From: Candidatus Saccharimonadales bacterium
GTDB taxonomy: Bacteria; Patescibacteriota; Saccharimonadia; Saccharimonadales; SZUA-47
Length of the DNA stretch: 64,000 bases
Direction: 5' to 3'
Assembly (NCBI GenBank): GCA_041737385.1
Contig: JBGSRU010000002.1
Coordinates: forward strand, 205,437 to 269,436
Positions 6,408 through 30,328 of this stretch are shown here, in pieces. Under the pieces are notes generated by a model. That model was not told the origin of the DNA. It saw only the letters and a program-made list of their open reading frames with translations, and did no database searches. The position numbers were made by a program, and so were the translations under genes. How positions within the stretch are numbered: position 1 is the stretch's first letter; every line of letters starts with the position of its first letter.

Positions 6408-7181
6408 ATGAAAAAACTACATGAAGTAATAGGTTTAATAGAAAAATTTGCACCACCAAATCTTGCTTTTTTTGATTATGTTGGGCTTCTGCAGGGTTTA
6501 CCAAGCCAAGAAGTAAAGAAAATTGGCATCACTTTAGACTATTCACTGCAAGCAATAGATAAAGCAGTGAGTCAAAACTGTGACTTGCTAATAACTCACC
6601 ACGGACCAGAAAAAAAAGAAAATCGACATTATGGCAATGATTTAAAAAAGTATAAAGCTGCTCAAAAAAACTCGCTTGCAGTTTATAGATGTCATCTTAG
6701 CCTCGATTTTTGTAGCTCTGGGATTATTGAAGAATTATGCAAACTTCTTGGTATTCCTGCGTCTCCTGTCGGGATAACCTATAACAATATAAAGTTAAAT
6801 GGCGCAGTAAGGTTAGCGGAAAATTACCCTATGACGCTTAATGATTTAGTGAAGCGAACTAAGGTTTTAAATTACCCCTACCTAAGGCTTGCCGGACCTA
6901 TAAAAGAGAAATTTAGTAGGATTGCTATAACTTCTGGGCAGGGATTTATATCTGAGTTTTTTGATCAGCTTTTACCTGATATATACATTGCGGGTGAATT
7001 TGAACAAGAAGCAACAAAATATGCTGAAGATTTAGGTATAATGCTTGTCGAGATTTCTCATCATGCTAGTGAGTCAAAGCCACTCGAAAATGTAGCAAAG
7101 ACTCTTGAGAAGTACTTAGGAGTTGAAGTAGTACACGTTGAAGTACCTGATACTATTAGAGTAATACATACGGTTCATTAA
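6408..7181 (+). CDS. NIF3-family dinuclear metal-centre protein
   Basis: 257 aa. LLITHHGP near the N-terminus and EISHHASE near the C-terminus are typical of NIF3/YbgI proteins. Confidence 0.8.
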   Translation: MKKLHEVIGLIEKFAPPNLAFFDYVGLLQGLPSQEVKKIGITLDYSLQAIDKAVSQNCDLLITHHGPEKKENRHYGNDLKKYKAAQKNSLAVYRCHLSLDFCSSGIIEELCKLLGIPASPVGITYNNIKLNGAVRLAENYPMTLNDLVKRTKVLNYPYLRLAGPIKEKFSRIAITSGQGFISEFFDQLLPDIYIAGEFEQEATKYAEDLGIMLVEISHHASESKPLENVAKTLEKYLGVEVVHVEVPDTIRVIHTVH

Positions 7182-10781: not shown

Positions 10782-10846
10782 GCCACATAAGCTCAGTTGG
10801 AGAGCCTTCAGCGAATAATAATCGCAGTTGCTCTAACCAACTAACT
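10782..10846 (+). pseudogene. tRNA-Thr 5' fragment (acceptor plus D-arm) followed by an inverted D-arm copy
   Basis: 10782-10805 GCCACATAAGCTCAGTTGGAGAGC resembles the 5' 26 nt of the intact tRNA-Thr at 10903. 10830-10845 GCTCTAACCAACTAAC is a near reverse complement of the D-arm. No matching 3' acceptor strand follows. Confidence 0.5.
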
Positions 10847-10902
10847 CTAAAAGCAGCAACTTTAAAAATTAGAACAAATGCACTCAAGTTTAAATACTGT
10901 GT

Positions 10903-10979
10903 GCCACCTTAGCTCAGTTGGTTAGAGCAGCTGTTTTGTAAACAGCAGGTCGTCGGTTCGAATCCGACAGGTGGCTCCA
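10903..10979 (+). tRNA. tRNA-Thr (anticodon TGT), CCA encoded
   Basis: Acceptor GCCACCT/AGGTGGC, D-arm GCTC AGTTGGTTA GAGC, anticodon loop TTTGTAA, T-arm GTCGG TTCGAAT CCGAC. Confidence 0.9.
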
Positions 10980-11174
10980 AAAGTCTCATGGCGGATTTGA
11001 ACCGAAATAAGGTTCGCTATTGCCCAGCGGAATTTATTCCAGCAACGGCGCAATACCACACATCCGACAGGTGGCTCCAAGAGTCTCATGGCGGATTTGA
11101 ACCGAAACTAAGGTTCGCTATTGCCCGTAACACGTTGCTAAGGCGCAATACCATACATCCGACAGGTGGCTCCA
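10962..11174 (+). repeat. Three direct copies of the tRNA-Thr 3' end delimiting two structured units of about 80 nt
   Basis: ATCCGACAGGTGGCTCCA occurs at 10962-10979 (inside the tRNA), 11062-11079 and 11157-11174, giving periods of 100 and 95 nt. The two intervening units share both flanks and differ in a central 16-22 nt. Confidence 0.85.
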
Positions 11175-28785: not shown

Positions 28786-29313
28786 TCACTCTCCAATATT
28801 AGTGCCATTTAGCTGCATTATCTGGTTAATAGTAGCGACAACAACGGTGCTTGTTGCTGTTAACGGAGCTTCTTCAGGGCTAAGACAATCCGGTGGTGAT
28901 TCAGTGCTTTTTGATGTCACGAACATAACTTTGGTACTCATACCAAGACCGAACCGCGCAATGTTATGTACTTCTGCCGCCCTGTCTATGCCACTGCGTA
29001 CTTCATGGACGAACCGATCAATAGCCGGTTGTCCTGGATGTTTGCTACAGCGTAGAGCATCGTTATCCGTCAAAGCTACAGCACTACCATCAGGATTTGT
29101 TTCATAGTATTGCTGAAGTAAGTTATCAGCTTGTTCGCGATCACTGTAAGGTACATCTTTTACGAACGATAGAGTGAAAGGCAACATACCGTCATCACTG
29201 CGAAGAGCTCGACTTACTAGGACCTCTGCGCGTTTGGCATGTCTTTTCACTCTTTTCTCTGCATGTGAAGCTGTTCTAAATCTGCGTGGAATTGTTATAG
29301 ATTCTAGTGACAT
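28786..29313 (-). CDS. Hypothetical protein (175 aa) in a GC-richer patch next to the tRNA-Trp array
   Basis: Longest ORF of an overlapping sense/antisense pair. One hand-counted 60-nt line (28981-29040) has 32 G+C, against 19 in a typical line (9121-9180). Confidence 0.5.
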   Translation of the reverse strand: MSLESITIPRRFRTASHAEKRVKRHAKRAEVLVSRALRSDDGMLPFTLSFVKDVPYSDREQADNLLQQYYETNPDGSAVALTDNDALRCSKHPGQPAIDRFVHEVRSGIDRAAEVHNIARFGLGMSTKVMFVTSKSTESPPDCLSPEEAPLTATSTVVVATINQIMQLNGTNIGE

Positions 29314-29381
29314 ATATCACATTACTTTAATATATAAAACACTGTATTGTCAAATTGATTATTAGACATATACATAATGAC

Positions 29382-29530
29382 TAATTTTGGCAGGGGTGAG
29401 CGGGACTTGCCCACACTATGCGGGCCCAGAACTTATTTACTTTCAACAAGTTGAAAATCATTAAGATTCTCTTGCGAAAGTTCTCTGGACTTTCTCACCT
29501 GCAACAACTCCGTTGGTTGACATACAAGTC
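29382..29530 (-). pseudogene. Decayed tRNA-Trp-like copy: degenerate anticodon-arm remnant, T-stem GCAGG, 88-nt insertion A, then T-loop/acceptor 3' end plus CCA
   Basis: Minus strand reads ...GGAGTTGTT GCAGG [TGAGAAAGTCC...AGTGTGGG] CAAGT CCCGC TCACCCCT G CCA. 29382-29399 repeats 29576-29593 exactly (18 nt). Confidence 0.5.
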
Positions 29531-29542
29531 ATGCACGCCCAC

Positions 29543-29573
29543 AAAATCAAAAATCCGACTCTATGGCCGGATT
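29543..29573 (-). terminator. Intrinsic terminator after tRNA-Trp
   Basis: Minus strand: AATCCG GCCATAGAGT CGGATT followed by TTTTTGATTTT. Confidence 0.6.
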
Positions 29574-29581
29574 CTTAATTT

Positions 29582-29657
29582 TGGCAGGGGTGACAGGACT
29601 TGAACCTGCGACACCTGGTTTTGGAGACCAGTGCTCTACCAACTGAGCTACACCCCT
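29582..29657 (-). tRNA. tRNA-Trp (anticodon CCA), CCA end encoded
   Basis: Minus strand: AGGGGTG TA GCTC AGTTGGTA GAGC A CTGGT CTCCAAA ACCAG GTGTC GCAGG TTCAAGT CCTGT CACCCCT G CCA. TATAAT (29672-29667) lies 9 nt upstream. Confidence 0.9.
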
Positions 29658-29690
29658 ATATTGATGATTATACTGTGAAAAGTTCAAATC

Positions 29691-29984
29691 TGACAGGACC
29701 CAGCACCAGAATGAATTCGGTGCGAGGCAAGCTTGCCCACATTCTGTATGCTTAGAACTTTCGTTACTATCAACAAGTTGTTAATCAGAAAGGTTCTCTT
29801 GCAATATGCTTCAGGCATATCTCACCTGCAACACCTGGTTTTGGAGACCACCCCACGGTCTTACTTGAAATGAATTCCAAATCAGCCGTCGGCACGTCTC
29901 ACATCTGGCGCTAATGTGCGCAGGTGCTCCGACCTTGCATACTGCCGCTGGCAGTCTTCACTCTATCAATTGAGCTACACCCCT
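29691..29984 (-). pseudogene. tRNA-Trp-like copy interrupted at three sites and truncated at the 3' end
   Basis: Minus strand: acceptor plus D-arm (29984-29959), about 108-nt insertion I1 (29958-29851), anticodon arm with CCA anticodon plus T-stem (29850-29825), 89-nt insertion B (29824-29736), CAAG, 33-nt insertion (29731-29699), TCCTGTCA (29698-29691). There is no acceptor 3' strand. Confidence 0.6.
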
Positions 29985-30100
29985 TCGTTGCTAATATTTA
30001 GTAGTCGTTAACAGTTTACAATTTTCTTCATTAACTCACAAATTAAAGTCCTATGAGCAATATATTGTAAATATATGTACATCATAGTATAGTTTGTTTA

Positions 30101-30328
30101 ATGGAAATTTTCGACGAGCAGCAACGCGTTAATGCTACGGAACCAACACAAGTAATACCAGATGATATGTATCATCCGAGTTATGACGGATCAGCTCATT
30201 GGGTGCGCTTTGCAGCAGATGGAAGTATTGATAGGGAGAGTACTGCTGAAACCATAGCTAGACAACGTGCAGCTGAAGCGGAACGAGTACAGCCACCGCG
30301 CATGCAAACGATTATTGATCCCGTTTAG
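30101..30328 (+). CDS. Hypothetical protein (75 aa)
   Basis: ORF only. Acidic, with no recognised domain. Confidence 0.4.
   Translation: MEIFDEQQRVNATEPTQVIPDDMYHPSYDGSAHWVRFAADGSIDRESTAETIARQRAAEAERVQPPRMQTIIDPV

Follow-up and report, generated by a model that had tools for sequence, protein, structure and literature searches.

A module-bearing tRNA-Trp copy lies upstream of the intact tRNA-Trp gene

The stretch of DNA analysed here (hereafter the window; 64 kb of a Candidatus Saccharimonadales genome) contains a tRNA-Trp gene that is accompanied by two partial copies of itself, an interrupted copy upstream (unit A) and a partial 3′ copy downstream (unit B). Both partial copies carry in the T loop a module of about 90 nt, which we name E (E_A and E_B, respectively). 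The modules represent a family, apparently not described before, of conserved and folded elements of about 90 bases that occur beside many different tRNA genes in Saccharibacteria-like bacteria. Coordinates are positions in the window, and the tRNA locus is read on the minus strand. The locus is composed as follows:

29984–29959, minus strand: 5′ part of the pseudo-tRNA-Trp (acceptor 5′ strand and D arm), AGGGGTGTAGCTCAATTGATAGAGTG; repeat family D3
29958–29851, minus strand: insertion 1 (I1), 108 nt, at tRNA position 26/27
29850–29824, minus strand: TGGTCTCCAAAACCAGGTGTTGCAGGT, comprising the anticodon arm (CCA anticodon), the variable region, the T-stem 5′ strand and T54; repeat family D2
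29823–29736, minus strand: E_A, 88–89 nt, a T-loop insertion with T54 on one side and C56 on the other; its P1, P2 and P3 form a four-way junction that the T stem closes
29735–29732 and 29731–29699, minus strand: CAAG and a 33-nt piece with a GCACC/GGUGC hairpin inside
29698–29691, minus strand: TCCTGTCA, what is left of the T-stem 3′ strand together with the start of the acceptor, doubling as a predicted −35 box
29690–29682, minus strand: GATTTGAAC, an inverted T-loop copy at a fold-back junction, the reverse complement of GTTCAAGTC with one mismatch
29657–29582, minus strand: intact tRNA-Trp (CCA), called by ARAGORN and matched by the Rfam tRNA model with 72 bits
29541–29388, minus strand: unit B (type B), consisting of an inverted arm, hairpin P0, GTTGCAGGT, E_B and CAAGTCCCGCTCACCCCTGCCA

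The resemblance of unit A to tRNA-Trp is far above chance. The repeat finder assigned its 5′ part to a family of 35 nt with 80% identity to the intact gene (D3), and TGGTCTCCAAAACCAGGTGTTGCAGGT is the same as the intact tRNA-Trp at 26 of its 27 positions (D2, 27 nt, 96% identity). All the tRNA-Trp pieces that a first-pass annotation had read from the letters of this region were found, in the same order and at the same positions on the minus strand. That annotation had also considered the acceptor 5′ strand and D arm to be good; both pieces are present, but the D arm does not quite deserve the description, as G18 and G19 are gone from its loop (AATTGATA versus AGTTGGTA). Taken as a whole, unit A folds weakly (z-score −2.05).

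The intact tRNA-Trp begins 33 nt downstream of unit A. The promoter scan predicted a promoter for it that consists of CTGTCA (29696–29691), an 18-nt spacer and TATAAT (29672–29667), with matches at 10 of 12 positions; the TATAAT box that had been placed just beyond the end of the copy was thus located. From the position of the predicted hexamers, the T-stem remnant of unit A would serve as the −35 box of the intact gene.

Unit B, with its second copy of the module and its partial copy of the tRNA 3′ region (29541–29388), had been overlooked in the first-pass annotation, which described unit A alone. It is preceded by a weak terminator-like hairpin, and a sigma-70 scan predicted no promoter for it. 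Its inverted arm (GTGGGCGTGCATGACTTG) is decayed, with an arm z-score of just 2.2, and the fold of the region has a z-score of −3.0. The last 18 nt of unit B are an exact copy of the 3′ end of the real tRNA-Trp, including flanking sequence past the CCA (repeat family D5; the copies are spaced by 176 nt). E_A and E_B share 77% identity and differ by compensatory changes in the first hairpin.

We also observed that the tRNA 5′ part and the E module recur between the two units at a distance of exactly 327 nt (326 nt for the P3 region), the interval taken by the 108-nt I1 being occupied in the second unit by the rest of the intact tRNA and the spacer (~105 nt). Both partial copies have T48 (GTGTTGCAGG), whereas the intact tRNA-Trp has C.

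Unit A is a dead duplicate and not a split or intron-bearing gene

When the insertions are removed from unit A, the joined pieces amount to 65 nt with 60 identities to tRNA-Trp and lack one T-loop U and the last 9 nt. These losses, including that of the 3′ acceptor strand and CCA, had been pointed out before and were found again here; a G27–G43 mismatch, also pointed out before, is consistent with the alignment of the spliced copy to tRNA-Trp. ARAGORN called no tRNA in unit A, whether unspliced, spliced, or spliced and supplied with the true 3′ end. Rfam cmscan of positions 29200–30200, with E values up to 10, returned the intact tRNA and otherwise noise of at most 17 bits; it gave no match to a group I or group II core, and no Rfam 15 family other than tRNA scored near its gathering threshold in the region. 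The insertions, at 88–108 nt, are also too short for group I or group II introns.

The first-pass annotation had raised the possibility of multiple introns of the archaeal type, and this was not supported. In the fold supported by covariation (see below), the two ends of E_A lie in separate hairpins, P1 and P3, and do not pair with each other; no bulge-helix-bulge (BHB) geometry was seen at the E_A junctions, as judged from this fold and not from a dedicated BHB search. Excision of the insertions never yields a 7-nt T loop, and the interrupted tRNA copies of other genomes likewise lack the tRNA 3′ part. Unit A is homologous to its neighbour, has lost invariant tRNA positions and is not called as a tRNA, as expected of a tRNA pseudogene. 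With its 3′ acceptor strand and CCA absent, mutations at core positions and no tRNA call, unit A is a dead duplicate of the adjoining tRNA-Trp that can give no tRNA product. Of the more conservative earlier description, a decayed pseudogene, the pseudogene status therefore stands and the random decay does not, since the T-loop insertion comes from a conserved family of structured modules.

E modules form a family associated with tRNA genes

A covariance model (R1) was built on a seed of 17 sequences, E_A among them, and a broader one (R2) on 29 modules; R2 was run without filters on the whole 64 kb. E_A scored 83.7 bits with R1 (E ~1e-18, 29829–29725) and 80.0 bits with R2, and E_B scored 104.5 bits with R1 (29398–29502) and 98.9 bits with R2. 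A pattern derived from the module matched the window twice, against 0.00 matches expected.

Relative loci, numbered with the prefix L, were fetched by GTDB, metagenome and protein searches. A scan of GTDB with an internal pattern of the module returned 63 stretches, of which one was real and the others were chance matches; in the real one (L032, a metagenome-assembled genome (MAG) of Saccharibacteria), the module lies downstream of tRNA-Lys(CTT), within a partial copy of the tRNA-Lys 3′ region. When metagenomes were scanned for three conserved blocks, about 20 real loci were obtained. With R1, most family members scored 80–114 bits, and further modules that lack the exact blocks were detected as well. 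Two scans of IMG/VR found no real copy of the module.

The modules keep to tRNA genes: 27 of the 29, including both modules of the window, lie at most 260 nt from a tRNA on the same strand, and 27 of 29 sit inside a partial copy of the adjoining same-strand tRNA. The neighbouring tRNAs, as called by ARAGORN, represent 10 isoacceptors (Pro-TGG, Pro-GGG, Leu-TAG, Leu-TAA, Lys, Trp, Met, Gln, His and Arg). Comparison with relatives had been proposed as a way to distinguish chance decay of a duplicated tRNA-Trp from other histories; the relatives do contain the same kind of 3′-truncated copy, but they do not show random decay, the modules being conserved beside about ten isoacceptors. At the window locus itself, L075 is a syntenic relative, and the relatives found through the YgjP-like neighbour (57–62% protein identity) have no tRNA-Trp at that locus. 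The closer protein relatives L118–L120 have no tRNA-Trp there. A full-text literature search, which covered papers on Patescibacteria tRNA introns and on guide-RNA arrays of candidate phyla radiation (CPR) bacteria, found no description of the E family.

On the tRNA-sense strand, the module forms a four-way junction

The structure was derived by RNAalifold and by explicit counts of paired positions in 17 modules. Its helices are P1, a long P2 whose apex is of the A-A-C-U-U-G-U-U type, and P3; together with the tRNA's own T stem as the closing helix, they form a four-way junction. The E covariance model reads, in order, GGUGAGA, P1, YGCAAG, P2 with an AGAA..UUCU base, and P3, the tRNA stem halves closing the whole. 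Of the cells, 95.4% were paired, as compared with 81.9% after shuffling and 28–45% when the partners were slid; 15 of the 33 pairs have changed on both sides, and none of 500 shuffles reached the observed values. In the module's own helices, G.U or U.G combinations outnumbered A.C or C.A combinations by 30 to 4. This excess indicates that the fold belongs to the tRNA-sense strand, as for RNA or sense single-stranded DNA.

The conserved junction bases are GGUGAGA, YGCAAG and AGAA/UUCU. The blocks GGTGAGA, GCAAGAGAA and AAGTTCT are invariant in the set, partly as a consequence of what the search pattern demanded; in the matches found by the model only, AGAA/UUCU is replaced by GAAA/UUUC, a compensatory change.

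I1 is probably a distant relative of E, and the 33-nt piece is ambiguous

I1 is laid out as GAAGA, P1 (CUGCC/GGCAG), UAUGCAAG, a GC-rich P2 (GUCGG..CCGAC), GG and P3, an order of elements that agrees with that of the family (GA(A/G)A, P1, UGCAAG, P2, GG, P3). With the filters off, it was the third best match to R2 in the 64 kb (29965–29866, 20.3 bits, E 0.0079), the next match having 12.8 bits (E 0.43). Its own fold has a z-score of −2.5. A clear module (60 bits) occupies position 26/27, the insertion position of I1, in L094. Judging from its layout and score, I1 is probably a divergent relative of the E modules, although its membership is tentative.

The third insertion that had been proposed, of 33 nt, is present as such, but its standing as an independent insertion is ambiguous, as the covariance model takes CAAG-CTTG as the remainder of the T loop. 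CAAG and the 33-nt piece may be a decayed tail and fold-back, a duplication junction, or an extra hairpin insertion. BLAST of I1, of the 33-nt piece and of the tRNA-Thr units described below against all fetched loci gave no match, and random filler is possible for both I1 and the 33-nt piece.

Partial copies with modules recur in two layouts

Interrupted copies upstream of an intact gene, which we call type A, are found in the window and in L076, L079, L081, L094, L096 and L073. They are built in the order of a tRNA 5′ part reaching to a loop, one or more modules, a few tRNA bases, a flip to the reverse complement, a TATAAT-like box and the intact tRNA. A fold-back motif like GATTTGAAC (..TTGAACC or ..TCGAACC) follows all six of the T-loop type A units examined. 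The module is placed at 54/56 in the T loop, in the D loop (L081), at 26/27 (L094, L096) or in the anticodon loop (L073, Pro-GGG). The tRNA parts of the type A units are decaying, as exemplified by the loss of G18 and G19 in the window and by the change of U33 to A in the L073 tRNA-Arg copy.

Type B units follow the intact tRNA and its terminator. An inverted copy of the 3′ third of the tRNA comes first; after a loop there is a direct copy, starting at about position 45, whose T loop holds the module and which in many cases finishes with the exact tRNA tail and a second terminator. Most of their modules begin 69–86 nt past the tRNA end. The inverted arm matches at 18 of 18 positions in L088, with arm z-scores of 5–10 in most type B units, and the repeat of the tRNA tail is 16/16 in many loci. 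These units fold as multi-branched structures that are closed by the arm:tail helix and leave an overhang of the NCCA type (z-scores −5.1 and −8.5). Module scores were 23–108 bits for type A and mostly 99–114 bits for type B. The two types combine into a three-part layout that recurs at tRNA loci of Saccharibacteria-like genomes, in which a truncated, module-bearing tRNA copy is followed by the intact tRNA and then by a partial 3′ copy with a module.

Some E modules occur in tandem (L075 6527–6701, minus strand; L096 1–173 and 384–560, minus strand), in the pattern GGTGAGA-P1-GCAAG-P2 followed directly by GGGTGAGA-P1-GCAAGG-P2; in L096, modules replace tRNA positions 27–55 of the type A copy.

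Another element, a leader of ~125 nt that we name U, lies directly upstream of tRNA genes in L032 (2636–2760, plus strand), L096 (582–710, minus strand) and L103 (89–217, plus strand). It has covarying hairpins and an apical loop, GAAACUUGUUUUG, similar to the apex of P2 of E. Among the fetched loci, nhmmer found U in these three only, and it found none in the window. U stands before the type A copy in L096 and directly before the intact gene in L032 and L103. This placement suggests that the type A copy occupies the ancestral position of the gene and that the intact gene is newer.

Modules are exchanged between tRNA loci

For every module, the closest relative was found on another contig, in a different genome, and never in the partner module of the same locus. 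The type B modules of tRNA-Pro in L076, L073, L103 and L094 group together with 79–89% identity, which looks like vertical descent, whereas the tRNA-Pro modules of L097 and L096 group with Leu and Met modules (83–85%). At the orthologous tRNA-Pro loci of L076 and L097, the arms, junction bases and tails are 90–100% identical and the neighbouring coding sequence (CDS) has 79% DNA identity (83% at third positions), whereas P2 and the first terminator hairpins are just ~45% identical. This contrast and the clustering of the modules indicate that replacement across loci, if not of whole modules then at least of their stems, outpaces change in the scaffold. Modules are exchanged between tRNA loci and have given way, at orthologous loci, to those of other lineages.

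Two further differences between related loci were noted. The terminator hairpin before the type B unit is wholly different in L076 (3270–3355, minus strand) and L097 (1737–1830, minus strand), with the A-rich and T-rich flanks kept. The orientation of the tRNA cassette relative to the shared neighbours is reversed between the window and L075, and between L073/L076 and L094/L103.

A different module follows tRNA-Thr

Two tandem units of ~95–100 nt stand right after tRNA-Thr(TGT) (10903–10979) in the window, at 10980–11174 on the plus strand. Each of them ends in an exact copy of at least the last 16 nt of tRNA-Thr, has an inverted arm of the T loop (GGCGGATTTGAACC) and bears, inserted in the T loop, a hairpin module different from E, which we name F (GGTTCG|C..hairpin..|ATCC). 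Modules resembling F are also found after tRNA-Arg in L073 (~2600–2690) and after tRNA-Met in L086.

Possible origins of the units

What we infer about the mechanism and function of the modules can be put as follows. E modules may be non-autonomous insertion elements that depend on structure and target tRNA loops, their hits surviving when they coincide with a local duplication; unit A would then be a decaying ancestral copy of tRNA-Trp with two modules, the remnant of which supplies the −35 box. We put about half of our confidence in this reading. The modules would act through an RNA or single-stranded DNA intermediate and would enter behind G/C-U in tRNA loops. As no tRNA is dispensable, an insertion would survive only when a local duplication accompanies it: an ancestral gene copy takes the hit and decays to a type A unit, and a fresh copy with a minimal promoter would take over. 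The fold-back arms could pair with both halves of the T loop, leaving the module as a bulge, and might be part of the insertion or copying mechanism or its folded substrate.

Several points weigh against insertion elements of this kind. No transposase, integrase or reverse transcriptase was found near any unit, the neighbours being housekeeping genes only; the functions of the neighbouring open reading frames (ORFs) were judged by clustering, by Pfam tags on the fetched contigs and by visual inspection of N-termini, and not by a full domain scan. The module ends showed neither a target-site duplication (TSD) nor a terminal inverted repeat (TIR). Near-identical copies within one genome, a sign of recent transposition, were not found; copies from the same genome were at most ~77% alike among the loci compared, which differs from what defines miniature inverted-repeat transposable elements (MITEs) or REPINs. 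The arms and tails of type B units are more conserved than coding DNA and the units have terminators of their own, features that agree with a function in place no less than with selfish spread. None of the mechanisms tested explains how the inverted arms and partial tRNA copies arise. The metagenome search pattern demanded three conserved blocks, an ascertainment that forces three motifs to be invariant, and most metagenome loci have no verified taxonomy.

The main alternative is that the modules are domains of functional non-coding RNAs, type B units being transcribed with or after the tRNA and type A units being by-products of recombination. The helix of arm and tail with its NCCA tail would mimic a mini-helix for RNase P, 3′ trimming and CCA maintenance, and the E junction would bind a protein or ligand; part of this is compatible with insertion elements. 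Type B units indeed fold far above shuffled sequences, with an arm:tail helix and 3′ overhang (z-scores −5.1 and −8.5), and have a constant layout with their own terminator; their arm, junction bases and tail are better conserved than the adjoining CDS, copies in the same genome are old and diverged and yet retain the fold, the fold is specific to the sense strand, and U and F also flank tRNAs and have a hairpin loop of the AACUUGUU type in common. Against such RNAs, the type B unit of the window has no predicted promoter and stands after a terminator-like hairpin, tails and arms are decayed or truncated next to intact modules (L087, L073 and the arm in the window), modules in the D loop, at 26/27 and in the anticodon loop have no tail, and there is no match to an Rfam family. 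On balance, we consider this alternative possible but rather unlikely. A third explanation treats the units as scars left in tRNA genes by site-specific integration, the attachment (att) sites being those of integrase islands or of small elements that recombine as folded single strands. The module would be an arm of the attachment site, the inverted arm and the T-loop halves would re-create the target duplex in the manner of CTX attP or integron attC, and the direct repeats of the tRNA 3′ end would remain from successive rounds of integration and deletion. Such repeats do lie downstream and are exact (18 nt in the window, 16/16 in many loci), the break point lies in the T loop, a classic crossover site of tRNA-targeting integrases, the inverted arm pairs with both T-loop halves with the module as the central bulge, and the orientation of the tRNA cassette varies between relatives. 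Nevertheless, we regard integration scars as improbable: no integrase or island gene lies at the repeats, which are spaced by only ~70–190 nt among housekeeping neighbours, no recombinase-like ORF recurs near any unit, the IMG/VR scans were empty, the module is inside the repeated tRNA segment with its 7-nt overlap not duplicated, and covariation of the RNA type with a G.U bias is unexpected for double-stranded arm sites.

Two simpler accounts of unit A fare far worse. A genuine multi-intron tRNA-Trp gene, spliced by an endonuclease and ligase or by itself, could draw on the facts that archaeal non-canonical introns also use loop and junction sites, that the anticodon arm is nearly intact (26/27) and that Patescibacteria are rich in introns (PMC13011429). 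It is hardly credible in view of the missing 3′ acceptor strand and CCA, the T loop that is one base short, the lost G18 and G19, the G27–G43 mismatch, the failure of ARAGORN to call a tRNA, the fold without BHB geometry, the lack of a group I or II match, the intact copy 33 nt away and the equally truncated equivalents in other genomes. An ordinary tandem duplicate of tRNA-Trp that decayed and acquired random filler would agree with the adjoining intact paralogue, the lost conserved positions and the weak overall fold (z-score −2.05). For the T-loop insertion this is refuted: E_A scores 80–84 bits against a model made mainly from other genomes (E_A is 1 of its 17 seeds), and over 25 modules elsewhere have the same covarying fold. 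As an account of the whole unit, random decay is thus very improbable.

Other candidates were considered and rejected. Split tRNA halves (type A as positions 1–54 and type B as 56–76) do not agree with modules that are homologous and not complementary, with the presence of the intact gene or with the decaying core of type A. Self-cleaving ribozymes, group I/II introns, tmRNA and YrlA gave no model match and do not fit in size and layout. A guide RNA like the omega RNA of TnpB, with the module as scaffold and the tail as guide, would target the essential intact gene, and there is no linked nuclease gene. Snap-back cDNA of the mature tRNA, as a source of the inverted arms, does not fit duplications that include, beyond the CCA, flanking and terminator sequence. 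There is no relation to the TIGR-Tas arrays that CPR bacteria carry (PMC12045711), which give rise to 36-nt guide RNAs.

Beyond the E family, E, F and U together might mark an unrecognised Patescibacteria system in which copies of tRNA ends receive structured modules of RNA or single-stranded DNA, a proposal that we hold with considerable doubt. In one version, it may be a self-propagating element of a new class, whose hairpin of arm plus T loop mimics the T-arm duplex and is the integration site, so that every insertion rebuilds an intact tRNA. In the other, the units may be a new class of non-coding RNAs that mimic tRNA ends, are matured by RNase P and the CCA machinery and are each paired with a particular tRNA.

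Relation to known elements

Intron transposition among tRNAs occurs in Thermoproteales archaea, with non-canonical introns of the BHB type (for context, see PMC3241643). E modules resemble these in that related insertions are found at several non-anticodon positions of different tRNAs and have spread among tRNA genes; they differ in the bacterial host, the lack of a BHB motif, the incomplete copies beside an intact one and the conserved four-way junction of ~90 nt. Group I introns are present in bacterial tRNA genes, including those of Patescibacteria (PMC13011429; bioRxiv 10.1101/2025.07.03.662931), and share with E the phylum, the kind of host gene and a 5′ flank ending in U. They are longer (>200 nt versus ~90 nt), whereas E has no group I core, lies mostly outside the anticodon loop and restores nothing upon removal.

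Integrative elements that target tRNA genes, such as genomic islands and tycheposons, likewise leave a repeat of the 3′ end after the intact tRNA, break in the T loop and form tandem units, but the E units are only 100–200 nt long, have no integrase or cargo, place the module inside the repeat and are accompanied by an inverted arm and an upstream 5′ copy. The similarity to the attP(+) of CTX phage and to integron attC lies in the imperfect hairpin that re-creates a target duplex, the conservation of structure over sequence and the strand-specific fold; E differs from them in having no identified recombinase and no known circular form, and in a bulge that is a 90-nt four-way junction. REPINs, MITEs, BOX and Rickettsia palindromic elements are, like E, short, non-coding and multi-copy, with compensated hairpins and possible residence inside RNA genes. 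Compared with these repeats, E is strictly tied to tRNA loops, has no TIR or TSD of the module and is represented by few, old and diverged copies per genome. Finally, type B units end in a helix and a tRNA-derived NCCA tail, which makes them candidates for excision by tRNA enzymes, as in MALAT1/mascRNA and the plant tRNA-snoRNA dicistrons. The latter are cited in PMC12045711. Unlike in these RNAs, the type B tail is the 3′ strand of the neighbouring tRNA paired to an antisense arm, and there is no cloverleaf.

If these interpretations hold, several conserved, folded elements, none of them in Rfam, are maintained around the single-copy tRNA genes of bacteria with tiny genomes, and the puzzle of intron transposition among archaeal tRNAs has a parallel in bacteria. 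The family would also offer a defined RNA motif with strong covariation, ready for structure probing and transcriptomics. For annotation, such 'interrupted tRNAs' should be treated neither as introns nor as plain pseudogenes. E units may account for breaks in short-read assemblies and for the changes of tRNA cassette orientation between relatives.

Minor observations

In a short-read assembly of the same organism (Logan, SRR28170464), contigs L001 and L002 break within the tRNA-Trp repeat region, one contig ending and the other starting inside it. Such loci are therefore likely under-represented in MAGs.

L073 contains, at 7005–7104 on the plus strand, between tRNA-Pro and a canonical E unit, a variant module that begins GCGAAA-P1-UUGAGGAAUC; it scores 21 bits with R1 and has an exact tRNA-Pro tail and its own terminator. 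Further module families probably exist.

Upstream of the intact tRNA-Thr(TGT), the window carries at 10782–10847 on the plus strand a partial copy of the tRNA-Thr 5′ part (GCCACATAAGCTCAGTTGGAGAGC), after which come a loop and the D arm in inverted copy (GCTCTAACCAACTAACTC). This copy has the direct-then-inverted junction of the type A units, without an E module.

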